A DNA stretch of 64,000 bases from Geosiphon pyriformis uo1 (GCA_016748015.1 JAAOMT010000086.1:1-64000); one strand, 5' to 3'. Positions 7,549 to 54,889 are shown, counted from the first letter of the stretch. Notes: generated from the letters alone by a model not told the origin. Numbers and translations: made by a program.

Positions 7549-7801
7549 GTTAATAAATAGAACTATTTATGGTTTTATAAATAATATTTTTACACAAAAA
7601 TTTAAAGTTTTGGTTAAAAATATTAAAAACTTAGATAATAAAATAAATTTAATTTTAAAAATACTTTTAGATAATATTTGTATTAAATAAATTAAAAATA
7701 TAAAAACTAATTTTGTAAAAAAGATAAAAATTCTTTTAATATTAATATTAATTAAAAAACAAATAATAAAAGTAAGAGAAAAGTAAACAAATTTTTTTCT
7801 T

Positions 7802-11376: not shown

Positions 11377-12250
11377 TGTTATGAGATAATTTTCTTGTTA
11401 TATTTAATTGCTGATATTTCATTTTAATTGCAATTAGTCTCTTGTGAGTTCCTCAATTCTATTTGTGTGATAATGTTACTGTTATACTAAAGGCTTTCTC
11501 TTTAATGTTGTGATGTAAGTTATTTCTCAATTTCTGATTGTTGTGTGTATTTATGTACTCCTTCTCAGAGGCTGAACTGAAATCTACCTACTGTTTGGGG
11601 TCTTCTCTGAGGCTATCCTTGCAATTGCCTGATGTGTTTTTTTAATCTAGAAACACGGAATATTAATGGCTTTTATCACTTTTTTTAATTCTCACAATAA
11701 AGCTTTTATCAATTAGTAACAACGTGAATAATCTTGATCAGAAATTATTCTTTCAAGGAATTCAACTGATGAATGATAGTTTCATTCAATAATTAACACA
11801 AGTGAGTTTCTTACTACTTTGGGGTTATTATAATTCAGTTTTAAATATTCTTTTTCATTTCTTTTTGATTTAAAAATTTTTTGGGATATTTAATTTAAAG
11901 ATACAATTTAAAGTAGAGTTTGTTGGATAAATTGGATCTATTGTTTGATAAGTTATGATTTTTATTACTTGATTGTCTTTTCTCAATATTAAAGCTACTG
12001 TATATATACATGTTTGTAGTTCTATGAGAAAACACATTATAATATTTTCTTTTTGATATTTCAACCTGGTGTTTGCTGCTATCATCAGTTGGTGTTGGCT
12101 GCTATTGTGAATTGGTGCTTGTCACTATTGTGAGATGGTGTTTGCTACTATGCTAATCATTACCTTTCTAAGATTATTACTGCACTATATTATGATTGAA
12201 TAGTTTATATTATTTTTATAATTTTTTTGCTAAATTCTTAAACCATAACA
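11377..12250 (-). repeat. 3' LTR of element A
   Basis: Colinear with 20162-21035; preceded on the minus strand by the PPT. Confidence 0.95.
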
Positions 12251-12266
12251 TTATCCCCTCTTTTCA
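12251..12266 (-). promoter_or_regulatory. Polypurine tract of element A
   Basis: Minus strand gaaaagaggggataa directly abutting the LTR TGTTA. Confidence 0.85.
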
Positions 12267-12900
12267 AGATTGAGCTCCATCAAAATTGAAATTAATTTCT
12301 TTATTAAATTCTAAGTTACTATAGTAGTTCAATACTGTGTTATTAATTTGTTGTTGTAATTCTTGAAATTGCAAGTTGGTAAGTCGTCCAATACTGTTGG
12401 TTGTTATTATATTCATAGTTGGGTCCAACAATAGTTTGTGACAGTTTTCAAATGCTTTAAAAATTCTGTAAACTGTTTTTAAATGGAATGTAGTGTTGGT
12501 TTTTCTAATGAAAGGTTCTAATAGTTGGATAGTTGTTTTGTCAAACACTCTAGTTGAGTCTTTTGAGTATAATATTTGTATGTTCAAATGCTTTTCTAAT
12601 TGATAATAACAGTAGTTAATTGGAAATTTCATTTTCAAGTTGCTAAATGTGTCTGGTGTTAATTTACTTATTTCTATTTCTTCTATTATTAATGTATTGT
12701 CCAATGCTATCTCTAATTTTTCAATAACTTTGCTGATAAATTTGTTGTTATGTTTGGTAATATTATATGGTTCAAAATTATGTTTTTTTCTTGTTTTTGG
12801 ATTTTCTATTGTTCTTTTTATGTATGTTATTTTGGAGTTATTAACTGTGATTTCCAGATTGGATTTTAATTGTTGTAATCTTTCGACTAATTGTTAAGTT
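12264..12900 (-). CDS. ORF3 of element A (unknown soluble protein between IN and PPT)
   Basis: Frame of track ORF 12264..12704 stays open upstream to about 12895; homologous to the same position in elements B, C and D. Confidence 0.7.
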
Positions 12901-12988
12901 ATATTGTTTTAATTTTGACTAGTATTTTGAAATCTTTTGCATGCATTTTTATGATTGTTAAATTATTTTTGCTGTGATCTAAGATTAA

Positions 12989-14368
12989 TTATCTTTTTGA
13001 ATAATGTTCAATTAAAACTATTAGTTCTAAATCTTGTGGAATTTGTTCTGGTAGAATTAAAGATAATTGTGTTCCAATTTTGAATGTCTTTATTATTATT
13101 ACTGATTTACTGTAATAGAATTTTAGCTGGTTACCATGTGCTGCTTTTCTTAATATTTTATCATTTAGTCTTAGCTTGTATGCTTTATTTCCAAGTATTT
13201 TGTGAATATAAAATAGTCTATCCCACTTGTGATCAAATTTTCCACTCCATTGTTTTTCCATTTTTGTACAATGCAACAATACTTTATCTCTAATTTTGTA
13301 GCTAATTATATTATCTGGTAACTGGTTATTATGTCTCACTTTTTGTTGTTCTTGTGATTGTTCAATATTTTGTGCTGCTTTTCTTCTTTTGTTTTCTAAA
13401 ATTTCTATTAATTTGTATGTTCTTCTAAGTAGTATTTCCTGGAATGTTGTTTCAGTGATAGTGTTACTTGGATAAATTGGAATAGTAAGTTCAACTGGTA
13501 ATATGGCTTTTCTTCTATAAACTAGTTCAAATGGTCTGAATTGTATAGTATCTTGTTTTACTGTTTTATATGCTAGTAGTACTGCTGGTATAAACAAATT
13601 CCATTCTTTTTTATGTTTATTACTAATTTTTGCCAGTGATTCACATAATTTGTGATTAAATCTTTCAACTAATCCATTTGTTTGTGGGTGGTATGGTGAT
13701 GACAGTGGTTGCTTGATTCCAAATTTTTGGCTAAGTTCTTTTAAGGTGCTATTTACGAAGTATGTGCCTTGATCTGATAGCAATTTTTGTAGACATCCAT
13801 GCTGGCAAATTAAGTCTTTATGTACGAATTGAGCTATGGAAATAGCATCAGCTGTTTTAATAGCTCTAACTTCTGGCCATTTGGTAAGATAGTCCAAAGC
13901 TATTGCAATATAATAGTTGTTTTTTGTTGTTATAAGTAAGGGTCCAACTAAATCAATTCCAATTCTGTCAAATGGCTGTCCAACTTTTATTGGTCTTAAT
14001 AATTCTGTTGTTTTTGCTCCTTCTTTTCATTGGTATGGGTCACAATTTTTTATGTATTAAATTATGTCTGAACTTATTTTTGGCCAATAGTAATGGCTAG
14101 TTGCATATTAAATGGTTGTTGTTTTTCTAAAGTGGCCTAAATAAATATCTGAGTGCATGTTAAATAAGATAGTTTCTTTTTTATCCATGGTTATAACTCT
14201 TAATGGATTATCTGGATTTTGTTGATTCTAGTAATAAAGTATGTGATTTTGAATGAAATCATGTTTTGCTAATTTTTGGAGCTTAATTAGCTTTTTTACT
14301 AGCATTTTTTTGTCTATTTGTAGTGTTTTCAAGCATTGGTTAAGGTTTTTGTAAAGATGGTTATTCAT
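12989..14368 (-). pseudogene. Stand-alone integrase ORF of element A
   Basis: ATG at 14368, in frame with ORF 12989..13897. Motifs: GHF, FDRIGIDLVGPL, DYLTKWPE, LLSDQGTYF, YHPQTNGLVERFN, GPY/F-like C-terminus. A few premature stops. Confidence 0.85.
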
Positions 14369-14397
14369 TGTTGTTATGGCAAGTGGGTTGGTAATTT

Positions 14398-17300
14398 CTA
14401 TGTGTGTTTTATTCTTGACAAATAGTCAGCATTAGCATTTTTGGTATCTTCTTTGTATTTGATAATATAATTGTATGGTACTAATATTTGTGACCATCTG
14501 GTGTATTTTTTTTTTAGCACTTTCTTGTTATTTAATCAAACCAGACCTTTATGATCTGTGATAATTTCAAAGGGTTGGTACTGTAAATATGTGTTAAAGT
14601 GAACACAACTCCAGACTACTGGTAAGCATTCAAGTTTGTGTGCTGCATAGTTTTGTTTTGTCATACTGAGACTTCTGCTGGTATAAACAATTACATGCTC
14701 TCTTCTATTATCATCTTTTTGTGACAAAATGGCTCCAAGTCCAGTTCCAAAGGCATCTGTGGCCAAAATAAATTTCTTATTAAAATTCGAATAGATTATT
14801 ATTAGTGATTCAATAAGCTTTTGTCTAAGGTACTCAAAAGCTTTTTGTTGTGCTTTAGTCTATTCAAATTTCACATTTTTGGATAGTAGGTAATTAAAGG
14901 GTTTGGCAATGTTTGAAAAGTTTTCTACAAAGCAGTGGTAGTAAGATGCAAGTCCTAAAAAGCTTCTAACTTCTGAAACGTTTTGAGATACTAGAAAATT
15001 TTTCACTTTGTTTATTTTTAATAAATCTGGTTTTATTCCATCTTTTCCAACTACGTGTCCTAAAAATGCTAGCTTATTATTCCCAAAGAAACATTTTTTT
15101 AAATTAAGTTTAAGTCCAGTATATTTTAATCTCTCAAAAACTTGTTGTAAATATTGGAGATGATCTGCGAATTTTGGTGAAAAAACATTTGTATTGTCCA
15201 AGTAGACAACAATGAATTGCCACAGAATTCTGGAGTAAATTACATCCATTAGTCTTTGGAATATTGCAGGAGCATTTGTCAATTCAAATGGCATTACATT
15301 GAACTTATAATTGCTATTTTGTGTTTTGAATGCTGTTTTATGCCTGTTTTTTGGGTCCATTTCTACTTGCCAGTACCCACTGGTCAAGTTCAGTATAGAA
15401 AACCATTTTGCTTCTCCAAAAATGTTGAAAATTTTGTTAATTAATAGTATTGGGTATGAGTCTTTAGTTGTTTTGCTGTTTAGTTTGCAATAGTCGATGT
15501 AAAATCTAATTTTTCCGTTCTTTTTCCTTACTAAAACAACTGGTAAGAACCATGGGCTTATTGATAGTTGAATTATTCTTTTTTTCAACATGCTTTGGAC
15601 TTTTTCTCTGATAAAATTATGCTCCATTGATGGGACACGGTAAGCCCATTGTTTTTCAGATCTGGTGTTTCCAGTGGGGATTTGATGTTGAATGAAGTTG
15701 GTTCTTCCAAATTTGCCATTTTATGAAAATATATCAGAGTATCTTAAAATTAATGCTTTTAATTGTCACTGTTGGTCAGAATCCATTGTTCTAATGTTTA
15801 ATTTGGCCAATTCTTCTGGCATAAATTGATAGCATTCTAATGATTGTTGCCAATTTATTGAAGTGAGTTCACAGTAGAGGGCAATTTCTGGGAAATTTAG
15901 AATTTTTTGTGGTATTGATGTGTTTTCCAGCTCTATTTCAAGGTATCCAATGATAGTATCTTCCAGAATATAGATGAGTTCTTCTGTGGTGTTTGCGATA
16001 GAAATTTTTATCTATTGAGCTTTATCAGCTGAAATAAAAAGGTTAGTAAGTCCTATGAAAAACTGTTGACAAGTTTTTGGGTAGGGCTCAAATATTAGGT
16101 TTTTTTTTTTAATTGTTCTTTTTATTCTTATTTCTGATTTTCCATATGGTAGGAGCATAATGAACTGTTCAGTTTTAATTACTTTGCCTTTTTTCTCTAT
16201 TTTTTCAGTGAAATTCACTTCAATTCCTTTTTTTGTCGATCCGAAACCAAAAGTTCCTCTCGTTGTTTGTAACAATTCCTCATGATTTTCCACTGGCATG
16301 AATTTCCCAATTTTTACCAATGGTAGGAAAATTGCTTGTGCAATCTTTTCCTTAGATTCAATGGTATAAGGCTTTTCTGAATTGTTCTGTAGCAAAACCA
16401 TCAAATTTCCAGTGTATTCAGAATCAATTACTTCTCCTTGAATGCTTATTCCTTTTTTTGCGAAACTTGATCACAACACTATTTGAACCATTATTCCTGG
16501 CAAAATTTTAACCACTATTTTTAGGTTGATTTTGGTAATGCTCCTGGATAGTAACGTTGTGGATTGGTCTTCCAGATAACATAGATCGAATCCGGCATCA
16601 GTTGGATGGGCTTTTTCAGGTATTATTCCTAAGTGACTATTGTTAAAGTATCAGATGTCAATCACCTGTTCTAGGTTGGTATAGGCTACAAATTTTTCTG
16701 ACTCGGAACTGTCAGGTGAGTCTTGTTGATTTATTGATTGATTTTGAGACTGCTGATTCTCAATTTCCAATTTTTTTCTAAGTTCTTTTCATTTTGACAC
16801 TCTTTACAGCACTGATTTTGGCATAGGATAAAACAGTTTTCGCAGAGGTAAGTGTTGATTTAGACAAGGTATTGTTCTTGTTCTTGTCGAGTGAGGCATA
16901 GTTGTTGGTAGTAGTCCTGAAATTCATTCACTGGGTCGAACATGTTGTAGCTGACAACTTTGTCAGCTACTTTGGCTGACTCTTTCCAACTTTGTATTTT
17001 TTTGGCAGTTTTTCCTCTTACTTTGGCTTGTGCGGTGTTATACAACTCATTCTTGTCGTGTGAATAGTGCTGTAATCTTTTTAATGCTCTGTTGAATGCT
17101 GCTTCAAATGGCATTTCTCCTCTTATCTAGTTACAGATAAGGATTGTGTATTGGCAAGTTATATCACACATTCTTCCTCTGCCTGATATGTCATTCCAGT
17201 TGCACCCTCTTGGTAATAGTTCTCTATAAGCGAGGCACGGTTCCTCATCCCATTTTCCATGTCTTTCTGGATAACCATATTTTTTTTTTTTACAATAGTT

Positions 17301-20090
17301 GCAATAGTAGTGGGTGAAGTTTCTTGGGTCTTTGTCTGGTGCACTGCACGCAGTCATAGATGAGAGTTTCTTCTTGCAAACTGAACATTCTAGCTTTGGT
17401 TTGCGTTGCTGGTGGTTTCTTCATAAACTTACCTGGTTCCATTTGGATCTTTGTTTGCTAGTCCATGTTAGTACAGCTAGTAGTCCTGTTCTTTGGTCAT
17501 CAATCCAAGAGAGCTGATAGGTTTTGATGACTGGTAGTACTGAATTTTTTTCAAATTCAAAGGTAGGTCTTTGGTTGGTGCTGGGTTTTTGGAAGTGGCT
17601 ACAGGTGGCCAGAATTCTGGCCTGGTGGCCATTATAATTGATCAAAAGCTCTTGAGTAGTCTAGTCTAGAATGGCATTGGCTTTTGTTAACCAGTCATTC
17701 CCTATTAATGCTTGATATTATATAGTGTTTATTACTAATACTTTTGTAGGTATTACTATGTCATTAACTTCAAAAGGAAATGAGTTGATTTCACCATGAG
17801 ACAGTTTTGTACTTCCATTGGCTGTTATAATTTGAGACATTACAGCACAATCAACTTTAAAACCCAGTTGGTTTACTAGTTGAAGCATTATGATGCTTCT
17901 AGTGGATCCACTATCTAAGATAAGTTTGATTGGAGTATTTTTTATAGTGGCTTCCGTATACATAGCAATAATTGGGCATTTTTTGTCCAATGCTGCTCCA
18001 CTAAACATAGCCTCATTTTCCTCTAATTCAAAAGAAAAAATAGCTACAAGACTGTTATCTTTGGTGGCAACTGCTGGTGGTATTGTTTGGCTCAATTTGT
18101 TAAAGGAATTTTCGGTTCTGTTTATGTTTCTACTGTTAGTGTTTTTGATGATCAGATTTTCCAGTATATTAAGGTAAGTTTGTTGATAATTTTGGTAGTT
18201 TGAATTGGTTTGCTAACTGGTTCCGGCGCGGTTTGAATTTCTCTGAACCAATGTATTCTGGTTCTATATAGGCTGATTTTGGGGCTCAGGATGCCAATTC
18301 AGGTTGGCTATCATGGGCTGTTGCTGGTAAGTTCCTTGATTTTGATATGTGGTGAGATATTGGTGTGATAGTGGCGTGTACTGGTTTCTAAACATTTGGG
18401 ATGACACATAATAATTATTTTTACGTGCTTTCTGCATTATTTGCATTCAATATTGACTAATCAAATGTCCTATGCATTTGCAAAAATGGCAGGCACGTGT
18501 TTCTGTTCTGAATTTTTGGCACGATGAGCAATTATTTCAACTGTTGCTGACTTTCTGGCTGCATCTTTGGGGTGGTTGGTATGTATTTCTTCTTGGATCC
18601 AGGATAAAGTAACTTTCTATTTTCTTAGAGAGTTCTTTCCATAATTGCATTACTCTTTTCTCTAACATTTTTGTCTTATTTTTCTTCATTACTATGTTAA
18701 CTATTTGACTATGATTAGCTTCTTTCTCAGCCAATTCAAAAGCTTTGGTGAGCATTATGGCTTCTGGTAAGAAATTAGGATGGGCAGAGCATACTCTTCC
18801 TAAAATGCTGCTTTTTAATTCTTTAATAAACTGATTTAAAACCTAAGGATCAGTGTAGTATTCTTGTTCAATCACTTTAATCTGATGGTGAATTTGATTG
18901 AATCGAGCAAGATATTGGGTGACAGTTTCACCAGTACCTTGCTTGATAGTATTGAATTCGTTTTGTAGTTGAATTATGGTGTTTGGGTCACTAAAATACT
19001 CCAGGAGTGCATTTTTAAATTCAGTGAAGCTTGTGGGTTTTGTTTCCAGACTTTGATACCATGAGTCGGCTGTGTCTTTCAAAAAGAAAGGTAATGTTTG
19101 AATTGCTCTTTGGTCATTTCAGTTATTTGCCTAAATGGCTTTTTTTGCTTCTCTGAGCCATGTGTACATGTCCATTTCTTCTTTTTCTCCTGAGAAATCT
19201 GTTAGTTTTGCAATATATAATGTGGCCATTTCGTCGCTATTTTCTACTAGTAGACTTATAAGTCTAAGAGGAGGTGGGATAATATTTCCTTGAGCATTCC
19301 TAAAAATGGCTTTTCTTATATTTGGTTTTTTCACTTGATCATGAGTTTCTTGGTTTCTGGACTGGCTGCTTGTTCCAGTGACTGGTCTCTTTTTTGGATT
19401 CCAATTCAGACTCCTCTTCACGGTTTTCAAATCCCATTCCAAATTTTGGCTGAAAAAAAGAGTTTTGGAATAGCAATGAATATTTTTCTGTAATTGGTAT
19501 GTTTCTCTAGTTATATTGTTTAATTTTATCAGTATAACTAAGAGTTCTTGGCATTTGTGAAGTTGATGTTGATGATAATGCAGCTCCTAATAGAATTTGT
19601 ATCTTATTTTCTGGTGAAAAATGGTATGATTTATTTTCTGGTGAATAAATACATTGTTTCTTTATTGATTGAGTAACAGTTTTCTTTGGTGTTTGAGCAG
19701 GTGTTCATAGTTTTTGCTGGTTACTTTCCTGATTAGTGTTTAAATTTTTTTTGGTTTTGTTGGTGCATTCCCTAGTGTTTCCTGTGAATATTGGAAAATT
19801 TTTGTTGGCGTATTGCTCAATTTTTCAATGGATTTTGATAATAGTTGTGACTATTACTTCTACTTCCTTTGTATTATGATAATTCTCTATACAATCCAAG
19901 TTTTGCATGTGTGGTTCTTCTTTCTTTTCTATATGATAATTTATTCTGGCGTTAATATAATAAGTGAGGGCAGATTCTACTGGACAACACTTTTCTGGTA
20001 ATTTAAGATCACTTTGATGTTGTGTGTAAATAGCATGGCAGAATTCAAGAACAGTAAGATTAGGAGTTTTTGTCGCCACTTTTGTCTTTT
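14398..20090 (-). pseudogene. Gag-PR-Cys-rich-dUTPase-RT-RNase H polyprotein of element A
   Basis: Capsid-like region 19240-18700, CCHC about 18500, LILDSGS about 17915, dUTPase 16660-16235, RT ORF 14860..15627, RNase H ORF 14536..14766 (ATDA..GLGAILSQ); ends NADYLSRIKHT* at 14398. Confidence 0.85.
16235..16660 (-). pseudogene. dUTPase domain in element A
   Basis: Motifs DAGFDL, SSFAKKG, VIDSEYTG, KIAQAIF and RGTFGFGST. Confidence 0.9.
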
Positions 20091-20142
20091 TTTTTTTAGC
20101 AATGAATTATTGCTAATTATTATTTTCTTTTTGATTTTCTTT

Positions 20143-20161
20143 CCTCATAGGGTTCACTAAA
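20143..20161 (-). promoter_or_regulatory. Putative primer-binding site of element A
   Basis: Minus strand ttTAGTGAACCCTATGAGG right after the 5' LTR (TGG mutated to TAG); tRNA identity not determined. Confidence 0.55.
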
Positions 20162-21035
20162 TGTTACAGAATAATTTTCTTGTTATATTTAATTGCTAAT
20201 ATCTCATTTTAATTGCAATTAGTCTCTTGTGAGTTCCTCAATTCTATTTGTGTGATAATGTTACTGTTATACTGAAGGCTTTCTCTTTAATGTTGTGATG
20301 TAAGTTATTTCTCAATTCCTAATTGTTGTGTGTGTTTATGTACTCCTTCTCAGAAGCTGAACTGAAATCTACCCACTGTTTGGGGTCTTCTCTGAAGCTA
20401 TCCTTGTAATTGCCTAATGTGTTTCTCTAATCTAGAAACACGAAATATTAATGGCCTTTATCACTTTTCTTAATTTTCACAATAAAGCTTTTATCAATTA
20501 GTAACAACATGAATAATCTTGATTAGAGATTATTCTTCCAAGAAATTCAACTGATGAATGATAGTTTTATTCAATAATTAACACAAGTGAGTTTTTTACT
20601 ACTTTGGGGTTGTGATAATTCAGTTTTAAATATTCTTTTTCAATTTTTTTTAATTTAAAAGTTTCTTGAGATATTTAATTTAAAGGTACAATTTAAAGTG
20701 GAGTTTGTTGGATAAATTGGATCTATTGCTTGATAAGTTATGATTTTTATTATTTGATTGTCTTTTCTCAATATTAAAACTATTATATATATACATGTTT
20801 GTAGTTTTATAAAAAAACACATTGTAATACTTTCTTTTTGATATTTCAACCTGGTGTTTGCTGCTATCACCAGTTGGTGTTGGCTGCTATTGTGAACTGG
20901 TGCTTGCCACTATCACGAGATAGTGTTTGCTACTATGTTAATCATTATCTTTCTAAGATTATTACTGCACTATATTATGATTGAATAGTTTATATTATTT
21001 TTATGATTCTTTTGCTAAATTCTTAAACCATAACA
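20162..21035 (-). repeat. 5' LTR of element A
   Basis: Colinear with 11377-12250, same length. Confidence 0.95.
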
Positions 21036-21039
21036 GTGT

Positions 21040-21820
21040 GATATATTTAGTATAATTTGATAAATTGTTTAGTGTGGTTTTTGACCTGTCTAATGGCAAA
21101 GCTGCTGGTCTCTCAGATGTTTCAAATAAGCTTTGGAAGTATTATGACAAGTTAATCTTAGATATGCTTTTGGTGCTTTTGAATTCTTGTTTATCTAATA
21201 AATCAGTGCTTGGGCCTTGAAAAGAGGCTTGGGTATTGATGATTCCCAAATCATATGAATGAGAAGGTGTTTTTACAAATACTTGTTCTATTGCTTTGAT
21301 TAAAACAGCTTGCAAGATTTTTTCCAAGATTTTTTTTGATAGAATTTCTTTGACATACAGCACTTTTGATGTTCTTTGTGGTGACAATTTTTTGGTTTTA
21401 AAAGGTATAACAATCCAATCTCCTATTTTTGCAATTGGGTCCATGGTTGAGAATGTTCTAGAAAAAAATTGAGAGTTATGACTAGTCTTACAGGATATGC
21501 AGAAAGCATATAACTTAATTGGATGAGAGCATCTCAAGAAGAACTTGGTCAGAATTAAAATGTATGGCAAATTTATTAGGTTTTTTGGTAGTATTTATAG
21601 GGATTATACCAATCAAGTTATGACTGATTTCAGACTTATTATTGGTTACCATGTACATGATAGTTTGGACCAAGAAAAGGTTTTTTTCTGTCTTCTGTGA
21701 CACATATTTTATGATCTCCTGTTTTGTAAAGTTAAGCATCAAGAAAATGTGTGTGGGTATAGACTGAATTCTTAGTTTATCACCTGAAATGGTCATGCTG
21801 AATTTAGAGCTGATCTCAAT
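21040..21820 (+). mobile_element. Continuation of the LINE interrupted by A (RT domain), 3'-truncated
   Basis: The frame resumes across the TSD: FSGV|...DLSNGKAAGLS, IALIKTACKI, LQDMQKAYN, QVMTDF..LDQEKVF. Confidence 0.85.
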
Positions 21821-21959
21821 TAAAATCTGCAAGGTTGAAGAACATAAATTGGTAATTTGGATTTGTCTTTTTAATAATTATTGTATTTTAGAATATAGAT
21901 ATAGGATATAATAAATATAATACAAAATAAAATTAAACACTATTTAACTATTTTTTTTT

Positions 21960-24900
21960 TCTAACTTCTACAATTATCTGCTTTTATATATTTTTTTGGT
22001 TTTACAAGATTGCTTTCCATTGTTTTGCTATTGCCAGCTATTGCTTTGCTATTTCTGTTATTGCTTTATTTTTCTATGTTATCTTTAGTTATCTTATGTT
22101 ATAATATGTTATTTGATATTATTACATGTTATTCTGTGTTATCTTATGTTATAATGTATTATTCTGCACTATTATATGCTATTTTGTGTTATATTACATT
22201 TTTTTTTTGGTTATATTTCTTTATAACTTTGGATTGGTTTTCTATTCAGATAATATTATCTCTCACTTTTTAGAATTGAGTTTCTGCAAAATTATATGTA
22301 TTTGATATAATAACTTCATTTATGTAGTGTTCAATTGTTGTGTTAAGTATTGTTTTTTATAGGTTCTCAAACCATTGATTAGTTATTCATTCTATGTTGT
22401 TAATTGTTATGGTTTTTATAGATCTATACACCAGTATATTTGGACAATGTTGGAAAGCAATGTACAATTAGTATGCTGTTTTATAATATAACATCAAGTT
22501 GCTTCTTTCTATGAATTTTTCTACTTGTTGTATTGCTTTTTTGTTGAATGTTTTCTGGCTGAGGTCTTCATATAGTGTTTTCAAGTCAAGCTGTTCTCCA
22601 ATTTTGTAGAACCAATAAGTTAACAAAAGTTTTTTTTTTTATTTTTGAGTGTTGTCTGGTGTCCATCCCCCTGTTTTGGGGAGATTGGTTTTTTGAGCTA
22701 AAGTCTTTTTGATTTCTTTGAGCTTGGAGACCAAGTATCTTTTTTTATAAAATACTTCTTGTTCCTTCACTCTTTCTCTTTCATGTCCTGTCTGAAAGGA
22801 AGCTTTTTGCCAATTTTTTTTTTTGGATATTGTGAAAAGATAAGAATGGTTAGTTTCAATTAAACTTTCTTCTTTCTTGCTTCTGTCTTTGTATTGTATT
22901 TCTTTTTTATTAATTGTGATTTTTATTTGAGCATTGGATTGTTAAATCATGTCAAATAGTTGTTTTGAGAGTTGTAGAATTTAATCTGAAAGCTTCATGT
23001 TGGAAGTTTTATTAACTTATTTTTTTTTGTTGTTTCAGTAGTTATATATACTTAAATTTTTTCAGTTAAATAGTTGTGTATTAATTTTATGTTTTGATGA
23101 TGATGATTGGTTCTAAATCTCATGATATATTTTCTGGTCTGATTAATAGAATTTGTGTTTCTAGTTGATGCATAGATGACAATAACTGTTGTTTTGTATA
23201 ATAAATTTTTAATTAGTTTCCATAAGCTACTTTCTTTAAAATCTTGTTTTCTAATCGTAATTTGTAAGCTCTATTTTCTAACACTTCTTGTATATAAAAT
23301 AGACCATCACACTTTGGGTTAAACTTTTTACTTCATTGTTTTTTAGCTTTTATATGATGTAATAGTACTTGGTCTCAATCTTGAATTCCATTGGTTGCTT
23401 AGATAAACAGTTATCATATCTTTTTTTCTGTTGTTCTTGAGTATTACTAATATTGTTAGCTGCTGTTTTACAATTGCCTTCTAATGTTTCTATTAACTGG
23501 TATGTTTTTTGGTATAAGGTAGCTTCAAAATTTCTTTCTGTAATCATTTCAGTTGAGTATGACTGTATTTTTTGTTCAATAGATAACATTGCTTTTTTTT
23601 CATAAACTAGTTCAAATAATATAAACTGAGTCATATTTTGCTTTAATGTTCAGTATGCTAGTAATACAGAAGATATGAATAAGTCCCATTCTTGTGTGTT
23701 TTCATAGCTTATTTTCACTAATACTTTACACAATGTTCAGTTAAATCATTCAACTAGTCCATTTGTTTACAGATAATATGATAACAAAAAGGATCACTTT
23801 ATTCCAAACTGTTGGCTTAATTCAGTCAGTGTACTATTAACAAAATACATTCCTTGGTCAGATAGCAATTTTTTCAGACATCTATGTCTACAAATCAGGT
23901 TTTGGTGTACAAACTCAGCTACTGTTTTAGCATCTGCTACTTGGATGGCTCTGGCTTTTAGCCATTTTGTTAAGTAGTCTATGACTACAATAATGTATTG
24001 ATTTCTCTTAGATGTTATAGAGAAAGAACCAACCAAATTGATCTCAATTCTATCAAATGAATTTCCAATTGGAATGGATTGAAGTGGTTCTGTTATTTTG
24101 GCTTTTTCTCTTTTTTGGCATGAATTATAATTAAAAATATACTCGAAAATATTCTTATATATTGTTGGCCAATAATATATGTTTATTGTTCTTTCTAAGG
24201 TAGTGTCTTTATTAAAGTGTCTTGCAGTTGGGTCTAAGTATATGCTATATAGAATAGTGTTCTTTTTACTGTCTTTTATAACTTGCTGTGGAGTGATGTG
24301 GTTTTGTTATTCTCGATGGTATAGTTGATTGTTTTAAATAAAGTAGTTTCATGCTTGTTTTCATATAGTATTTTGTTCCTGTTAAGATAATATTTCTTGG
24401 AACTAAAGTGTTGATAAGTACTGCTGTATTTACTAATAAGGGATTGTGTTTATGATTTTGAATTAGATTTGTGGCATTCTCAACAAACTGTTGGTATTGG
24501 TATTCTTTAATTCTTTTTTGTAGTAAACTTTGAGTGAGAATTGTTGTAGATAAGTACCCCATCTTACATATTTTCTTTTTAATTGTGAATTATTGAATAA
24601 CCAAATAAGTTCTTTGTAGTCGGTATATAAGTCAAATAGTTGACTAAGATAATGTTTCCAAGCTGTATGGCCCAATAAATAGTGAGACATTTTAAATCTA
24701 TTGTACTATATATCTTTTCTGTGGAGTTAGTGCTGTGACTGGTGTAAACAATTGGATGTTCTCTTTTGTCCAGTCCTATTTACAATAAGTCAGCTCCTAA
24801 TGCATTTTTCAAGGCATCTGTAGCAACAATAGAATGTTTAGTGAAATTGAAATAAATTAATATAGGAGAGGTAATCAGTCACTGCTTGAGATAGTCAAAT

Positions 24901-27900
24901 GCTTTCTGTTAATCTTTCTTCTACAAATATGGTATGTATTTAGATAATAAGTAATGGAGTGGTTTTTGAGAATTTTTTGACAAATTGGTGATAGTATCAT
25001 GCTAATTCTAAAAATTTTCATAATTTACACAGATTGATTGAGGCTGGAAAGTCTTTAACTTTTTGGATTTTGTCTGAATCAGACTTAACTCTGTCTTTTC
25101 TGATCACTTGTTCTAAGAATTTCAGTTTGGTTTTTTTGAAAAAGCATTTGTTGGGATTAAGTTTTAATTCAGCATCTCAAAAGTGCTCAAACACTTGTTA
25201 AAGGTAAAGCAAATAGTCATTAAATGTTTCCAAGAACATGTTAGTATCATCCAGATAAACTACGACTGATTTCCAAAGAATTCCTTTGTATACTACATCC
25301 ATAAGACATTGAAAAGTGGCAGAAGCATTACAAAGTCCAAAAAGCATCACATTGAACTCAAAATTGCTGTCTCAAATTGTAAACACTGTTTTTTTTTTGT
25401 CTTTGAAGTCCATTTCAACTTGCCAATAACTACTTGCTAAATCTAATGATAAGAACTATTTCTTTTTTCTTAAATTGTCCAGAATTTCTTGGATAAGAGA
25501 AGTGAAATAACTATCTTTTCAAATGATGCTATTTAATTTTCAGTAATCTATACAGAATTGCACTTTTCTATTTTTCTTGGTAACCAAGACTATTGGAGAA
25601 GACTAAGAGCTTAATAATTCTTTGATTAAAGATTATTAAGCATTTGTTGTACTTTTTGCTTAATTAAATTATCACCAAATAGAGGTACTTGGTAAGTTTA
25701 TTGCTTAATAGGTCAAGTATTTCCTGTGTTGATTTGGTGTTTTACGATGTCTGTACATTGTAACTCATTTTTGCTGACAAAAACATTGGCATACTGATTC
25801 AGAAGAACTTTGAGTTGTATTTGTTGCAGAGTACTTAAGTTTCCTAAATTTAATTTATTGATCTCTTCTGGTGTGAACAAGTAACTTTCTTTTGGCAAAT
25901 TCCATACTTGTAAGATAATGTCACAGAACAAAAACAATTGCATGAAATCTAAAATGGGCTGAGATTTTTCTGAATTCTGAATATTTGGAGATATAAAACT
26001 AATAAGAGTTTCCTCCAGAATTTCTATAACATTTTTAGTCAGATTGTAAATGAGAATTTTAAAGTGTTTATAAGCCTTTGCGAATAAGTATAAGTTAGCA
26101 ATATTGGCTAAAAAACAGATTTTGGGATCTGCTTTAAATAACAGAACTTGACTTTGGATTTTTCAGTTTACTTTAAGAATGTATTGTCTGTATGGAGGAA
26201 TGAAAATAATGGTATTAATGTAAATAAATTCTATTTTGTTACTGTCTTTCTCTGTGAAATTAACTGGTATATTTTTTTTTCTACTTGATTTGAATCTATT
26301 GATTTTTCTGGTGATAAAACTTAACTTTTTGTAAGTAGTAACCAAAATTAATTGTGGTATTTTAATTAGGAACAGAAAGATAGCTTGGACTATTTTTTTA
26401 TGTAATTCTATTTTGTAAGATTTATCTGAATTGTTCTGTAACATTGTAATAATGTTTCCCATGTAACTGGCATCAATAATTCCTCTTTTTACATTAATTC
26501 TCTTTTTTGCTAGACTGGATTAAGAGACAACTTGTACCATTGTACTAACTAGAATTTCTAGTGGTATTTTGAGATCTACTTTTACTAGGGAGTGTGAGGC
26601 TATAACTATGGGTAATTGTCCTGAGTATTATAAGTCAAAGCCAGCATTGGTCTTATGTGTTCTTTCAGAGCAAATTCTTTTATTATTATTGTTATACCAT
26701 TTCAATTCTATTTCTTTGGAAAGATTAGGATATGCGAGATACTGTTCTGTTTTGGCAGCCTTAGATGGTTTTTGAAATGACATGTCTTTGGTAATTAATT
26801 CCTCTTTTTTCTTAGGATCAGGTAGTTTAATGATTGGAAACAGTATTCTTGGAGACAGATTGAACATGAAATTACATTTATTACAGTACTGGAAATAACA
26901 AAGAATTAAACAGTGATTGCACAGTTTAGTATTCAAGTCAGCTAATTTTTGCTCTTGTTCTTCTTAAGTTAAGGCCAATTCTTAGTATTGATCCTGAAAT
27001 ATGTTCAGATTATTAGTGAAAAAATCTTCAGTGATATAATCAGGTCCCTTATATTTAGGTACAAATAAATTTTTTTTGATTTTTTGTATTTCATTGAATG
27101 TGGTTTCTTCAGTCTTGGCACTTGCTATTCTCCTTATTTCATGCTCATTATGTAAATAGTCATCTAATTTATTTAGTGCTTATCACCAGATGGCCTTAAT
27201 TGGAATTCTTTTTTATACCTAATCATTGATTAAGATGGTGTATTGTCATGCTTTATTACATATTTTTTCTCTGCCAAGCACATTATTTTAGAACTTTTTA
27301 TTTAGCAAGATTCTGCCATAGGCAAGACATAGTGTATTGTTCTATTTGTTTTGTTATTTCAGTCTTCTAAATCTTTCCAATACACATAGTCTACAATAAT
27401 ATTTTGTCACAGTTGGCCATTTTTCATTATTTCTTATACATACACTCATAAAGGTTAACTTCTTTCCACAATTGACACAAATTAGCTTTGGAGGTTGATA
27501 AAATAGATTTTGTTAACTTAAAGCTAAATAACCTAATAGTAATGCTAAAGGTTCTTCTTCAGCTCTTTTTTTTTTTTTCCAGATTGGTAGTAGTGATAAC
27601 TCCATTGGGAAATCATCTGCCCAAGAAACTTGGTATGTCTTTATTGTTAGTGATAAAGTTGTTTCTTTGAATTTTATTAGTGGTGGCTCTAAACTCTGGA
27701 CTTTAAAGTGTCTACATATAGTCAGAACTTGGGCATGTTATCTATTATAAGTAATCTGCAGTTTCTGTATATTCCAATCAAGGATAGCATAGGCTTTGGC
27801 TAACCAGTTATTTCTAATAAAGGCTTAATATTGTGTTGCTTTCATGACCAGAACTTTAGTAGAAATTTGGATTCCATTAATCTTAAAGAAGAAATTATCA

Positions 27901-29982
27901 ATTTCTTCAATGGAAGTCTTGGTATTGTTATCTGTGGTGATGATTCAGGCAGTTGCTGTACAGTCTACTCATTAACTTAATTAGTCTATAAGTTGTTTTG
28001 TGATTATACTATCTGCTGATTTGTTATTGAGGATTAATTTAATGTCTATGTTTCTAACTTTAATATCAATGTATAGTGTCATTATGGATTTATTCTGGTT
28101 AATGGTGGTTCTACTAAAAAGACTAGAAGTATTCAGATTATTTACATTAAAAGAGAAGATAGTGGCAAAGATAGTGTCTTCTGTAATAATGGTAAGTAGG
28201 ATGGTATTGTGGTTTTGCTTTTAATTCGAAGAATTGGGAATTTTTTCTATTTCTTTTCTTTCTAAAGGTATAGAGCTATTAAAATTCTGGATTTCATTAA
28301 AACCAAGATAGAAGGCTTGATTCGGATATCCAGATAGTATAGGCCAAGATGGGACATAACCATAATTGATGAATCATGCTGGTATGCTATTTGTTTGCAT
28401 CTGATTGTTGCTGGAGTTCCTCCATCCTTGGTTGTAATCTATTGCATGAGGTTTAAGTTGGTTATAATTGGAGTTTTGATAATGAGATACTGCTTAAGCT
28501 ATTGGCTGTAATGGCTAATAATAGTTTTAAGGTGGTTGCTAGTTATATGTAAATGGTTGTGAGTATAAAAGCAGTAGATATTGGGGTCTTCTGGTCTGAG
28601 AATATTTTGGTTGTTGATATTGATTTTTTCAATTCTGGTTTACTAATTTCTGTTGACAATCCTGGACAATATGTCTAGGTTTCTGGCAATAATAACAATT
28701 ATAGAGATCAGTTTTCCAAGGTTGTTAGTGGTCCTATTGCTGTGAATATCTGCTGCTGTTATAATTTTTTCTCCTTTGGGATGGTTGATAGGTTTCTGTT
28801 GTACCAGCTAAGAATCCCTCAATTTTTTGAGTTAATTTTTTACTTAATTGAGTTATTTTTGCATCCATGTTGAAGATTTTGTTGATGGCTAAGTTAATAG
28901 CTTTAGTATGACTTGAAATTGTGCATCAGGGTGACAGCATCTTGCAGATTTGTCAGATGTTGGAGTTTTACAGATCTTAGAATATTACTTCTTAACCCCT
29001 TGATGAATTGTTTAAGAACTTGCATTATGGTATAGTAGTCCTTTTCAATGGTCTGTATTTGATAAAAAATTTGATTAAATTATTCAAGATAAGTGGTTAC
29101 TGCTTCATGATTTTTTTGTTTTATGATACTGAACTGATTTTGTAATCTGATTAGAGTATTAGAATTACAGAAGTATCATAAAAAGGCAAGCTTGAAAGTG
29201 GCAAAGTCAGTTGGCTTTTCTGTCAGACTTTGATACCACAAGTTTGCAGTTTCTGTTAGAAAAAATGGCAGCACTTAGATAGCTCTGTTATTATTCTAAT
29301 TATTGGTGGTAATTGCTTTCTCAGCTTCTGCAATCCACAAATATGTATTGTTTTCTTTACTAGAAAATTTTTCCAATTTCGTGGTATCTTAGTAAGTCAT
29401 GATCTGGTTAATAGGTAGAAGGTTTAAGAAAATTGATGTTTATATGTTAAAGAGTTTTTCTGGTGCTAGTTCTGATTGTTTTCCTTTGTCATTAGAACCA
29501 ATAGGTTAAGAAATAGCTGTTTTTTTTATAGAAAAAGTTGCTGATCTTGCTAAGGTTTGTGCTGTTAGTAATTCTTAAATTGACATATTTTCATCAGTTT
29601 TATGAATTTTAGGAATCAGATTTCTAAACAACAATCTGTATTTTTCTAGGAATTTGGTCCAACTGTGGTGCTCTCAAGGGTGTGGATTTCCAAGAGTTTG
29701 TGGTGTTTCTAACTGGATTTCTGGGGGTGGGTTGAATACAATTCTACTTTGGGATGTCTGATAGTATAATAGAGTTGTTAGGGAAAGAATTTTCAGTTTT
29801 TTGTTAACTGTAGACTTGGCTTGTTCCCTTCTAGTTGTTAGATTAAATCTGAACTTGTCTTTTCTAGAGTCTAATTTTCTGGTTTGGTTTACTTAAGAAA
29901 AACATTTTTCCATATAATTTTTAATGTCCATATCAACTATGCGAAAAGTTTCAGTAATGACTCATGTTATGGTGTTTGTTAA
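21960..29982 (-). mobile_element. LTR retrotransposon B (same architecture), 5' end lost at the LTR of C
   Basis: Partial 3' LTR ending at 22255 with adjacent PPT-like tract; ORF3 about 22960-22270; IN 24453-23087; RH about 24830-24463; RT (VVYLDDTN) about 25700-24900; dUTPase (NAGFDL) about 26700-26270; Cys-rich about 27480-26850; PR about 28030; gag about 29400-28650. Confidence 0.85.
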
Positions 29983-30971
29983 TGTTACTAGTAGAATTTT
30001 AGCTATTAATTAGCACGAAATTATCTTCATAATTCTTATTATTAAGTAGCATATTATTATTATTTCAATTATTACTTATTAATTAGCCAAATTATCAAAT
30101 ATTATTACTTAACTAATAACTCGATTTGTACTATAAAAATTAAAATGATCAAATTATACAATACCCTGAACCATTTAATATAGTCAAAATTGGCCAAAAT
30201 TAATGAAAAATTGGCCGAAATAATTAATAATTTGTAGAAATAACTTGTAGTTCACCAAAATATATCTTAAGTTTAGTAAAATTAGAGCAAAAAGAAAAGT
30301 GCAAGTTCAAAGACTAGTATTACAACAAGTTATATAAAAAAAGAGCTTCTCTTTTCAAGAAAATGTATTTTTTCATATCTTTTTATATCTTCTCATAGTA
30401 TCTTAACATAATATCTTACTTTAGATATCTTAATTAAAACAAATTACTTTTTACATATTTCAAATAAAAATTAAATATTCGAAAACAAATCCTTAAAATT
30501 ATTACACTTGAAATTCCCTTAACACAACTAATGTTTTGAAATTAATTAGCTACCAATTTCAATAATCTGTTAATGACTCTAGACTTGGATAGAAAACGTT
30601 TTTTTTGACACAATTTTATTTCTTTTATATTTTGTTATTTTTCTTTTCTTTCTTATTATAATCATTTGGATAGTTTATGGATGAAATTCCTATAGAAGAG
30701 TTGACTTTCACAGTAAAGTAACTACACATTTTTAGTAAGCTTCCAGACAAACAATTCCTGGGAAAGAGTTGACATTTTACTACAATGTAACTACATAAAA
30801 TAACTGGCAAGAAATTGGCTATTCCACTTATAAGCCCAGTGGTTCAAATTATAGAAGATAATTTAAATATAAATTCAGTTACAAAAGGTCCAATTACTTC
30901 CTAAGAACATGAATTCATAGCAAATCAACATTAATAACATTCAAAAAAAGAAACTAAAACCTCCAGTAACA
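29983..30971 (+). repeat. 5' LTR of element C
   Basis: tgttactagtag...ccagtaaca, followed by tttggtgctctc. Confidence 0.9.
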
Positions 30972-31069
30972 TTTGGTGCTCTCTTACAGAAACAACACAG
31001 CAAAAACAATTTCAAAGTGGTGACTACACCAGACACAACAACTCTAGAGTATTATCAGTCAATCTACGC

Positions 31070-31933
31070 TGTTACTCATAAAATATAGGAAGTATATTAA
31101 CATATAAATTAGCCAATCAGAAGGAGACATAGTAAATGTGAAATTCCAGAATTTCTCTCAGAAGAATTACAGAATTCCAGGAATTCCAAGATTCCTGGTG
31201 TGAAAAATTAAGGAATTGAGGAATCTCAATTATATATATATAGCAGTAGTATCAGAAGCTAGAAAATGAGTCAAATAGACTCCCAAAGTCAATTAGACTT
31301 AAAGTTAAAAAGACTGAGAGTCAGTCAGACTCTCAGAGTCAATTAGACTCGCAGGTCATAATTATTAAATACCCTTCCTTCAAAAGATAGAATACTATAA
31401 CTTGAAGTGAAATCACTCTCATATTAATAAAATTATCCATTATCTTCAAATCCATGTTATTATCCACTACTTAATCTGCTGGCACAATAGCTCTTGATCA
31501 TGGCTATTAACAGGACACTTATTTCTTATTTTATTTTCTTTATTTCGTTATTTTCTTTATTTTTCTTTATTTTATTTTCTTTTGTTGTTTACTAATTGAT
31601 TAAAAAAATTAAGCACTGAGTTATTGATGTCAAGAATAGTCTGGTAAAAGACCCAGAAATAAGGATAGAATTATATATATTAACAAATAGTTTACCAGAA
31701 AAGCACGACTGCCAGAATAAATCCGGCTGCCAAGCTGAGAAAGAAATTGGGCATAATTGCGACTCCAGGAAAACTACTACCATCACCATTGAATCTCTGT
31801 CCATTATACAAAGAACTCAACCAAAATCTTTAGATAACAATACCTTCAGATATTACCAATAACATTATATCAATTGAGCACCAAGTTACAGGTTTGTTAT
31901 TTGATTTGAAACCCCAAATAATCATCTGTAACA
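31070..31933 (+). mobile_element. Solo LTR (864 bp; family of the E/F LTRs) inserted in the 5' gag region of C
   Basis: TGTTAC..GTAACA ends; TSD acgc/atgc (one CpG transition); removing it restores the reading YYQSIYA-HCKQRFNI. Confidence 0.9.
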
Positions 31934-34900
31934 ATGCACACTGCAAGCAAAGATTCAACATTCAAGACGGAATTGAAATTTTCAAGAAATTACTATACCA
32001 ATATATTGAAAATTACATCAACAACTATTTTTTTGGAAACTATAATATTTCAGAAGTCAGAAACAACTTCTACAATAATTTAGTATACTATTTACAATTG
32101 GGAACAGATAACCTGAGCAGTAAAACACTTGTTACCTACTTCCAAGAATTTAATTTTAACATTATTAAGTATTGTGAAGGAAAATACCCAGTACAGTCCA
32201 AATACTTTTTTGACTTTGAATTAGAAACAGAAACATCTACCAAAGGCAAACAAAAAGTGAAACAATACTTAAGAACCACTCCAAACACTCCAATACTACC
32301 AAAAACAACTGCCAAACATTTGCAAACACCTGAACAAGAAACCAGTGTCAAATTACCACTTTCTATTACACTATTTCTAATTTTACTTATTCAATTACAA
32401 ATACCAAATTCACCACTTAACCATTTCTCCAGACCAGAAGATTATTAGTTATTTAGAAATCCTACTCAATAGCAGAAACCCATATCAACAAGCACCAATA
32501 TTATTGATTACTTACAAAAAAACAAAAGTAATTATTCAGAAAACTTGGAAAGTGAAGAAACTGAATCAGAACAAGAAAACAAAGAAGAAATAGCAACTGC
32601 TTATATTGCAAAGATTCCAGAATTTACTGGTGAAGATAATGATACCAGCCCTTAAAAATGGCTTGACAAAGTTCAAAAAGCAGGAGATGCAAATGGTTGG
32701 AATACAGCAAAAATGCTCAAAGCAATCCCATACTTTCTCTAAGGAACTGTAAGAGAATGGTTTGAAAACTTAGAAGAACTATTTAGAAATTGGCAAGCAT
32801 TCAAAGATGCTTTTTTACAACAATTTACCAACAACAACACCTCTATCACTCTCTGCAATCACTTTTGCAATATCAAACAAGAAACATCTGAAACTGTTAT
32901 GACTTATCTTAGGAGATTCAACAAACTTTTTTGATGAATTTAACAATTAGAAACCAATGAATACTATTCTGATGCCCAGATTTTGGATCAATTTATAATA
33001 GGATTAAAAGACAAATTGATTAAAAAAGTTTGTCCACATGCTCTAGCAGATTTAACAACAGCCATTAGACATACAAAGAACTATAAAATGGCAATAGAAA
33101 AAACAAACCATACTAAACTTGTGAATCTTACTATTGAAGAAACCAGCTCAGCAGCTGAAAAAAAAATTGTTCAACTTACAAAGAAGATTGAAAACTATTT
33201 TACCAACTAGCAACAACAGCAACAACCACAAAGATATCAGCCACCACAATAACAAAACCAAACCAACTATTCATTATTATCAAATAATTAAAGCTAAAGT
33301 TGTCATTATTGTGGAATTCTAGGACATTGAAAACGAAATTGCAGAAAATTGTAAAGAGATCAACAAAACAGAAGTAATCAACATTACTCTCCATTACAAC
33401 AAACTTATTACCAATTCCTACCACCAATTTATTGCCCACCAAAACCACAAAATCAAAACAATTACTATTAACCAGCTCCACAACCAATATAGCAACAATA
33501 TTAGCAATCTTTACCAATTCAGTAATATCAAACACCATCCACTTAACAATATCAAGTACCAGCCAGAAAATTGGTCCAACAAAACCAATTTACACCACAA
33601 AACCGTTTTTTAACAAACCACAAAAGATTTAATCCCAATAATCAACTAGTTTCCTGAAATTCTGTTCAACAAAGACCCATTCAGTTTCACACTTAACCCA
33701 GTTATTTAACAATACAAGAAAAATCAGATTTTCAACAAACTGCACTTTTTGAAGATGAAATTGTAGCACCAAAATCAAACTCTTTCAACAATACTATTCT
33801 ATCAGCCCAAATTGCCCAAAATGCCAATTTTTCAGATATATTCCCATTCAAATTTGAAGCAAATGAATTACTATTCTTGCTTAGCAATGCAGCAGTCAAT
33901 GAGCAAAAAGCTATCACTGCCATGTATACTAAAGCTACAGTAGAAAGAAAGCCTATTTGATTAATTCTAGACAATAGATCCATTGGAAGTATTATCACCT
34001 ACCAATTAATGCAATAACTCAATCAAAATGTCGACAGACCAGCCCAAACAGTAATTGTTACAGCAGATAGTATGCAAAAAACACCAATAGAAGAAATTAA
34101 CAACTTTCCATTTACTATTGATGGAATTACTATTTCAGTTAAAGCTCTAGTCATAGATGTACCTCAATACCAAACTTTTGTTGGAAATGATTAGCTTCTT
34201 AAGGCCAATACAAACTTAGACTGGGAAACTCAGGAGCTAAAAATCTCATATCAAGAACATTACACCATAGTATCTGCTACTTGTGATACTTTTAACAAAT
34301 GATCAGAAAAAGCCCCAGTATTCGAATTTGAGAAGAAGAAAAAAATGCCACTTACTGAGACCTACATGGCTCTTGGATCAACATCCAATTGGGCTGAGGA
34401 AACAGAATAAGAAATTTTTAAAAAATCAAGAAGATAGAAGAAAGTTAAGTATTTTACACCAGAACCACGAAAAGAACCATCATACATTCTACTAAAATAC
34501 AAAGATTGCAAAAAGAAGCTTTTATCTATGAGAGCCTATATTTCTTCAAAAGAAGAATATGAAACTTGCATTTGCTACTTCTGCAAAGCATGCCATAGAG
34601 AACAATTTGGATCCCCAAAAAGAAGTGGAAAATAAAACAACACACCTTGTCTCACATATAGAAATATGCTACTAGAAGAATGCAACTGGATTGATGCTGC
34701 AATGAGAGGAGAAGTATGTAATCAAACCTGTTAATATGCTCTATTAATTTCGAAAAAAGTCAGAAAAGAAACACTATTTAATGCAGCATGCAACAGTGCT
34801 CTCAATAAATTTTACCACTATCTTTATGATGCTGAAATGATTTTTGACTTAGTAATGGCATTAATTAATAGAGCCACCCAAAAAAATATCTGCCAAATAA

Positions 34901-54885: not shown

Positions 54886-54889
54886 AAAA

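Follow-up and report, generated by a model that had tools for sequence, protein, structure and literature searches.

A Ty3/gypsy retrotransposon lineage of Geosiphon pyriformis with integrase and a third open reading frame encoded outside the polyprotein

Element A and the related elements of the window

The DNA analysed here, called the window, is a stretch of 64,000 nucleotides from Geosiphon pyriformis uo1 (GCA_016748015.1 JAAOMT010000086.1:1-64000) and consists of an AT-rich nest of decayed long terminal repeat (LTR) elements. LTR elements are reported to cover 41.2% of the G. pyriformis genome (PMC11952901). The feature under study, element A, is a decayed copy of a Ty3/gypsy LTR retrotransposon in which integrase (IN) and a third open reading frame (ORF3) are genes separate from the polyprotein. 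In contrast, the canonical Ty3/gypsy Pol is one polyprotein of protease (PR), reverse transcriptase (RT), RNase H (RH) and IN.

Element A reads, in order, LTR, Gag-PR-Cys-rich insert-dUTPase-RT-RH, a stop codon, an AUG-started IN, ORF3, polypurine tract (PPT) and LTR (Table 1), and has a 4-bp target duplication. With stop codons entered as X, Pfam recognised the Ty3 capsid, protease, dUTPase, RT, RH and IN (H2C2 and rve) in this order, and Ty3 was the best match in the PDB for both the RT (E 2e-50) and the IN profile (E 1e-52). The Pol stop lies at 14400, and IN, opened by an ATG at 14368 in a different frame, extends to 12991; the ORF3 stop (12266-12264) abuts the PPT on its 5' side. The first ORF is broken twice in A alone, near 19400 and near 16790; element B is in one frame from Gag to the start of dUTPase and element C from PR to RT. 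Gag to RH is therefore probably one ORF. Deamination was heavy in the window copies (observed/expected CpG 0.23; 0.8-6% stop codons), and the two LTRs of A differ by 53 transitions against 2 transversions, indicating decay by transitions.

Table 1. Coordinates of element A, of the other elements in the window and of the hairpin loci in relatives
Feature	Position	Strand	Remarks
A 5' LTR (TG...CA)	20171..21035	-	865 bp; 93.6% identical to 3' LTR
A putative primer-binding site (PBS)	20152..20170	-	directly after 5' LTR; B and F carry TTTGGTGCT at the same place
A Gag N-terminal extension	19401..20148	-	about 250 codons; frame break near 19400 offsets it from Gag core; without Pfam match, start codon uncertain
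A Gag core	18449..19229	-	Ty3 capsid PF19259, PF03732; CCHC-like knuckle at 18491
A aspartic protease	17667..17954	-	DSG at 17915
A Cys-rich insert	16782..17399	-	about 205 aa; common to A, B, C, E; no Pfam match
A dUTPase	16231..16662	-	PF00692, E 1.8e-21
A conserved segment between dUTPase and RT	15930..16230	-	about 100 aa; common to A, B, C, E only
A RT and RH	14398..15747	-	stop four codons past RH end motif
A spacer	14369..14397	-	29 nt, AC-rich, unstructured, AUG-free
A separate IN ORF	12989..14368	-	459 codons, 3 internal stops; ATG, A at -3; H2C2 and rve, SH3 tail weak, chromodomain absent
A ORF3	12264..12935	-	about 225 aa; first codons damaged; Geosiphon-named proteins (82-90% identity) start MILIP
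A PPT	12251..12263	-	
A 3' LTR	11386..12250	-	
Element B	29982..40702	+	LTRs with 83% identity; Pol stop at 37476, then gap of 57 in the same frame to IN start position 37536; ORF3 39069-39776; E/F-family LTR in 5' region, ends 31933
Element C	21036..29980	-	5' end interrupted at B; Pol stop at 24465, then gap of 9 in the same frame to IN start position 24453; ORF3 22998-22270
Element D, coding part	44800..49550	+	PR and a short Cys motif, dUTPase absent; Pol stop at 46837, then gap of 65 to IN start position 46905; homology of 3' ORF uncertain
Element E	49551..55055	+	PR-Cys-dUTPase-RT-RH; Pol stop at 53704, then gap of 29 to IN start position 53736; IN cut at about 54902 by LTR remnant
Element F	55056..57745	+	E-family deletion derivative; PBS, Gag and PR run into the last codons of ORF3 and the PPT
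Hairpin loci	L010:290-337, L013:4459-4506, L015:581-628, L017:20-65, L019:181-228, L030:171-218, L034:4-51, L051:15-62, L054:488-535		directly before IN start

In all five window elements that keep the junction (A-E), Pol ends exactly four residues after the RH end motif. AC-rich, unstructured spacers (29, 57, 9, 65 and 29 nt in A to E) lead to a conserved IN start position, which is ATG in A and ATA in B-E, with an A at -3 in all five. The frame changes across the junction in three of the five; B and C are in frame.

The preliminary description of this DNA had assigned the full plan to A, B and C, which was borne out in A by the order of the Pfam domains, and in B and C by the presence of PR, the Cys-rich insert, dUTPase, the Pol stop and ORF3. 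The segment following dUTPase is also present in B, C and E. Element E had been said to fit up to the truncation of its IN, and it does so for PR-Cys-dUTPase-RT-RH; however, no match to Gag was found in it. As described, D has the split junction and no dUTPase, but it also lacks the A-type Cys-rich insert, having a shorter Cys motif, and the homology of its 3' ORF to ORF3 is unsupported (blastp against B, E 0.03; 40 of 500 shuffles score as high). F is indeed a deletion derivative, in which PBS and Gag-PR are followed by a deletion ending in the last codons of ORF3 and the PPT. An N-terminally extended Gag had been made part of the plan; the extension exists in A, but those of A, B and C have no significant similarity to each other. 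The elements were described as belonging to different LTR families, and a blastn comparison of their LTR segments, approximately delimited, found no long match shared between A, B, C, D and the E/F family.

Relatives of the lineage and the position of its integrase

The lineage reaches well beyond the G. pyriformis genome. The split between Pol and IN and the conserved IN start recur in relatives, which form one clade and carry an intact ORF3 family. The protein search with IN was limited to the best 120 hits of 189-604 aa, a size range that leaves long fusions outside; none of the 120 contained the RH end motif, and 86 were 410-440 aa long with an aligned first Met. Using the RT of A as query, the best 120 hits longer than 501 aa comprised 50 proteins ending 1-21 aa after the RH motif, 42 carrying IN and 28 that were truncated or long-tailed. 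For the 45 RT hits in rows P0129-P0173 these figures were 38 ending after the motif, 3 with IN and 4 truncated or long-tailed. The same Pol end was seen in independent records.

At the DNA level, 79 metagenome (soil) loci were collected, 32 of which were informative for the order of RH and IN. Nineteen were split, 6 were fused, 1 was a frameshifted copy of the fused type and 6 had the Gmr1 order. Together with the five window junctions, this upholds the separate integrase ORF of the preliminary description. The gaps at the 19 split junctions were -11, -8, -8, -1, -1, 27, 37, 62, 63, 74, 89, 136, 136, 158, 163, 278, 365, 521 and 727 nt, all three frames were used (2, 8 and 9 of 19), and IN was unbroken in 14 loci. 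A purine was present at -3 in 24 of 28 IN starts (16.2 expected). The H-H-C-C and D-D35-E residues were invariant in 77 selected full-length INs, and no chromo family was found by Pfam in the IN of A, nor in these 77.

An RT-RH tree was made with IQ-TREE from 67 of 136 rows, chosen to span a FastTree of all 136; the rows were fetched sequences, mostly unnamed, without named reference clades. The 42 split rows (two gene models counted) formed one side of a branch with an ultrafast bootstrap (UFBoot) of 95 and an SH-aLRT of 97. A, B, C and E grouped at 99/99 with D apart; four window rows have an odd composition. The six Gmr1-order loci fell outside the split clade. Named members of the clade are Rhizophagus and Cetraspora, and Geosiphon by its ORF3 match. 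An old, diversified Ty3/gypsy lineage, as originally suggested, is supported.

Some observations argue against this division. Five gene models of the clade (Rhizophagus clarus, Cetraspora) join RT-RH to IN, without the RH end motif. Three of these five were examined, and in each the model jumps from within RH to a few residues past the IN start, which suggests that they reflect predicted introns, although real splicing is possible. If the introns are artefacts, gene predictors wrongly join the ORFs of the clade in Rhizophagus, Cetraspora and Geosiphon. Fused locus L040 was the sister of the split clade in the IQ-TREE runs, but lay inside it in the 136-row FastTree. Finally, because B and C are in frame, each of them alone could be a mutated fusion. 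Taking all junctions together, we nevertheless consider the split architecture (Pol stop after RH, separate IN, ORF3) real with near certainty.

The split integrase is the defining trait of the lineage; dUTPase and the Cys-rich insert, which had been counted as part of the plan, are extras of a sub-lineage. Besides A, B, C and E, only 7 of the 120 best long RT relatives have a dUTPase, and that of A is 42-50% identical to the dUTPases of seven soil relatives. The Cys-rich insert matched only window elements among the fetched proteins and loci, the large protein collections being unsearched with it, and the segment following dUTPase matched only A, B, C and E among the fetched sequences. A relationship of the Cys-rich insert to ORF3 was rejected (hhalign 0.1%), and a second dUTPase fold in the segment following dUTPase was unsupported (hhalign 0.6%). 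dUTPase may be a later addition, which would limit uracil in the cDNA.

No clade member was found in the viral contigs searched, and the prokaryote genomes searched yielded distant integrases only, plus two gypsy-like fragments in metagenome-assembled genomes (MAGs). These RT/IN fragments (L083, L084) lie on two bacterial MAG contigs. Free integrases of the clade type also turn up under bacterial labels, namely P0037 and P0425, labelled as Bacillus or Acidobacteria MAG proteins. Binning contamination is the probable origin of both.

Other variation was seen among the relatives. A Pol C-terminal tail of 220-590 aa follows RH, without IN, at L013:3500-4438 and L029:4950-6702 and in P0185 and P0188. 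A His/Cys-rich domain is present at the N-terminus of Gag in L002:3226-3780, L010:2501-3211, L013:6804-7436 and L014:478-1200, and was undetected in the window elements. Outside the split clade, gypsy elements with a fused Pol are followed by a GDSL lipase ORF (L044:7401-10721, L053:4838-8078, L052:7295-7780; Pfam for L044), and L044 and L053 contain an ORF of about 715 aa that is env-like by eye.

The third open reading frame

Homology links the ORF3 products of A, B and C (blastp E 1.5e-16, 4e-11 and 9e-6). In the database, the nearest relatives of that of A are named as Geosiphon pyriformis proteins, with 82-90% identity in the best three of six hits. Soil loci have an ORF of about 145 aa in the same position, often with a similar end motif at the PPT. 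A profile of this family, window ORF3 included, retrieved 540 clusters (50% identity) at E<=0.001, including proteins named Rhizophagus, Gigaspora, Cetraspora and Geosiphon. When the profile was built without window or Geosiphon sequences and compared to the A/B/C alignment, hhalign gave 70% (E 4e-5). On single copies this independent profile scored A above 499 of 500 shuffles. However, B and C were unremarkable (52 and 71 of 500 shuffles as high). Because of this weakness on single copies, the window ORF3 is likely, rather than certain, to belong to the soil family, judging from sequence comparison.

Members of the family were detected in 17 of the 26 loci whose downstream DNA sufficed, but in none of 14 outside the clade. 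A conserved ORF3 ending at the PPT had been part of the original plan; this is true of the homologous ORFs of A, B and C, with the stop of A at the PPT, but since ORF3 was undetected in 9 of the 26 testable loci, it cannot be essential throughout the clade. Its absence was not significantly associated with overlapping junctions (3 of 6 against 2 of 13; Fisher about 0.15, by hand).

The predicted fold of the family consists of eight helices and is all helical (pLDDT 95.9); the fold predicted for window ORF3 from a three-row alignment was uninformative (pLDDT 33). Most members are basic (median pI 8.75), with conserved Arg and Tyr. None of 134 proteins has a segment of transmembrane strength (19-residue hydropathy 1.6), which, with the small all-helical model, rules out an env-like membrane glycoprotein. 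As to the retrovirus-like accessory complexity proposed earlier, the layout is closer to the polycistronic RNAs of caulimoviruses or victoriviruses than to retroviral accessory genes. No match was found in Pfam (18, then 134 members), PHROGs or the PDB sequences, in Foldseek searches of the model against the PDB and the viral fold library BFVD (0 hits at E<=0.001), or by tblastn of a family protein against phages. A VIA structure search gave a best Z of 4.9 (rmsd 3.6 over 81 residues). Top hits in the ESM Atlas were a closterovirus coat protein (0.94) and the translational repressor RegA (0.92), sharing just 138-152 of 256 features, and serve as leads only. A relationship to DUF3102 or DUF1016_N was not borne out by Pfam on 134 members. 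From its properties and by analogy, we tentatively propose that ORF3 may be a soluble protein, all-helical and mostly basic, that attaches to RNA or to the translation machinery and helps translation to restart or IN to be packaged.

Two longer gene models, P0266 (Gigaspora margarita) and P0359 (Cetraspora pellucida), contain ORF3-family domains, P0266 in two stretches. A coiled-coil-like ORF of 266 aa lies between IN and ORF3 at L014:7458-8258, and ORFs of 197 and 608 aa without a Pfam match follow IN at L047:2945-5364.

Expression of integrase and ORF3, and comparison with known elements

LTR retrotransposons and retroviruses normally bring integrase into the particle as part of Pol; a clade with a separately encoded integrase must make, dose and package it in another way. 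We favour, with a probability of about one half, translation of IN and ORF3 by reinitiation after the upstream stop on a full-length polycistronic RNA, because of the stop-start overlaps and the chained small ORFs. RH and IN overlap in 5 of the 19 split loci (-1, -1, -8, -8 and -11), twice as TAATG, and the first-AUG start of ORF3 overlaps the IN stop in 6 of 17 IN-ORF3 junctions. The long gaps of L018, L023 and L003 are filled by coupled small ORFs, two of them by ATGA overlaps. Small ORFs coupled by short overlaps, between RH (or an upstream ORF) and IN, are located at L018:252-1237, L023:903-1399 and L003:2493-2781, and in L024, L048 and L061.

By reinitiation, ribosomes that reach the polyprotein stop after RH would restart at the start codons that IN and ORF3 have of their own. 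Direct stop-restart would be possible at tight stop-start overlaps and a short scan over short AUG-free spacers like those of the window (9-65 nt), and the chained small ORFs would carry ribosomes across some longer gaps. Infrequent restarts would hold IN at low abundance compared with Gag, which shares a frame with RT in the window sub-lineage. If the split is real, packaging in trans is necessary because IN is untethered to Gag; RNA or a partner protein would have to bring it into the particle. ORF3 would promote restart or IN packaging, a role as that of TAV in caulimoviruses.

Several data weigh against reinitiation. Eight of the 19 gaps exceed 100 nt, and the gaps overall are not depleted of AUGs (37 seen, 43.1 expected). 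The 727-nt gap of L029 contains 12 AUGs and short ORFs, with no chain of long ORFs. [quoted passage not shown] As the last ORF, ORF3 would need its own expression route. AUG depletion was seen only in the last 50 nt before the IN start (10 against 18.6 expected), which also fits a nearby transcript start. Subgenomic RNAs for IN and ORF3, from internal promoters or by splicing from the 5' LTR, would account for this local depletion, for the long AUG-containing gaps of L003, L023, L029 and L059, for the five gene models joining RH to IN, and for the extra ORFs of 1.4-1.6 kb inserted between IN and ORF3 in L014 and L022. Known examples of spliced or internal RNAs are those of gypsy env and foamy virus pol. 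However, a branch point with YAG near the IN start was not enriched (3 of 28 loci, 4.85 in shuffles), and subgenomic RNAs give no purpose to the repeated exact stop-start overlaps and chained ORFs; we regard them as a possible, though doubtful, source. In nine loci of one subgroup, a covarying stem, 11-nt bulge and stem-loop is situated 3-20 nt before the IN AUG. Two-sided changes occur in 7 of 10 pairs and none of 500 shuffles reached the covariation score; the hairpin rests on this covariation, as single-sequence folding z-scores were weak (-2.6 to +1.0). Such a structure, or the unstructured A/C-rich leaders of the window, could direct internal ribosome entry just before the IN start independent of upstream translation. 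We think this unlikely, since the hairpin is absent from the window and from 70 of the 79 loci (E<0.01), has no match in Rfam, and may instead be a packaging or protein-binding signal. Its pattern had 0 matches in the viral contigs.

Synthesis of IN as an RT-RH fusion, through programmed frameshift or stop readthrough, is suggested by B and C, which are in frame with one or two TAA stops, and recoding between gag and pol is described as normal for the family (PMC5911963). Between RH and IN it is very improbable because frames and gaps vary, with all three frames in use and gaps of up to 727 nt; in addition, the conserved Met stands in good context, and a few codons upstream of it the IN frame is usually closed. 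The heavy deamination of the window copies could also mean that the split and ORF3 are by-products of the decay of an ordinary RT-RH-IN element. This we find scarcely credible. Same-position stops in all five copies give a chance of about 0.0015 (the product of five stop-conversion rates, by hand, assuming a Gln codon in all and with indels uncounted), so decay alone is very unlikely as the cause of the junction pattern. Furthermore, relatives with open Pol and IN frames are split, and the ORF3 family spans hundreds of clusters. Reinitiation on a polycistronic RNA is retained as the working model. Its full form, in which an undescribed fungal LTR clade would make IN by reinitiation and package it in trans, with ORF3 as reinitiation or IN-packaging factor and the hairpin as ORF3 binding site in one subgroup, is speculative and unlikely to hold in every part.

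The elements are gypsy by their enzymes and share LTRs, PBS, PPT, target duplication, the Ty3 capsid and the sequence PR-RT-RH followed by IN with Ty3/gypsy (Metaviridae, e.g. yeast Ty3). They are not canonical in organisation because IN is not part of Pol; they also differ by a conserved non-env ORF after IN and, in the window sub-lineage, by a single frame from Gag to RH. Chromoviruses have a chromodomain at the IN C-terminus that is not found here, and in contrast to env-bearing (errantivirus-like) gypsy elements the third ORF does not encode a membrane glycoprotein. In Gmr1 and DIRS the integrating enzyme is likewise unusually placed. However, in Gmr1 IN precedes RT in one frame (PR-IN-RT-RH), an order absent from the window elements, and the enzyme that DIRS encodes in a separate ORF (10.64898/2026.05.21.726589) is a tyrosine recombinase, unlike the DDE integrase found here. 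dUTPase between PR and RT is known from fungal, rotifer and planarian gypsy elements (PMC2864245, PMC5408684, PMC6431247), namely those of Postia (PosPlaTy3) and Phanerochaete, Tuber Tmt1, bdelloid Juno, Vesta and TelKA, and planarian Burro. The bdelloid elements also carry varied ORF3s. In the accounts available of these dUTPase elements no separate IN is described, and their ORF3s are GDSL, DEDDy, env or transmembrane proteins, whereas the present ORF3 matches no Pfam family.

Caulimoviruses are not known to have an integrase or LTRs. Those such as CaMV are nevertheless similar in being reverse-transcribing and in that their long ORFs follow one another across short overlaps or spacers (PMC5902531). 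ORF3 had no match in Pfam, the PDB or BFVD that would relate it to TAV. Precedents for reinitiation include victoriviruses and hypoviruses (PMC3542737) and caulimovirus TAV and SART1 (PMC5902531). AUGA, UAAUG and AUGnnUAA-type overlaps, as in victoriviruses, hypoviruses, caliciviruses, influenza B and SART1, occur in L006, L014, L018, L019, L022 and L028, but here most junctions are spaced, UGGGA is rare and the host element is an LTR retrotransposon. The caulimovirus review notes no TAV-like activator outside Caulimoviridae (PMC5902531); if the proposed role is true, ORF3 would be the first. In the clade, reinitiation after long ORFs in fungal cells and integrase recruitment in trans can be tested in a natural and tractable setting; it also yields a protein family of 540 clusters without known fold as well as a new structured RNA.

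The lineage had been put forward as undescribed, and no LTR clade with a separate DDE integrase was found in the literature as far as its accessible texts go, with subscription journals, supplements, Repbase, GyDB and Dfam outside the search. Surveys of transposable elements in arbuscular mycorrhizal fungi treat LTR elements at superfamily level in the texts available (PMC11952901, PMC11075540, 10.1101/2021.03.30.436303); the element libraries of PMC11952901 and PMC11075540 may hold consensus models of the present elements.

A long upstream ORF with a PWW-EP-like motif at its end is common to several of the hairpin elements, and a second shared sequence or hairpin is present upstream of the IN start at L029:7380-7432, L076:20-78 and L055:10-78. 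Elsewhere in the window, four related segments of the E/F-family LTR, with nested insertions and strong CpG loss, were recognised at 30990-31933 (inside B), 40720-41777, 54904-55055 and 57680-58300. Repeat-like DNA with several short ORFs adjoins element A at 4093-11385, next to a 20-base N gap (4073-4092). A tandem array of a 57-nt repeat occupies 62928-63669, and a repeat spaced at about 108 nt lies at 60393-61016. On the minus strand, positions 820-2907 contain an open frame of 695 codons; the GC content of this stretch, about 40%, clearly exceeds the window average.

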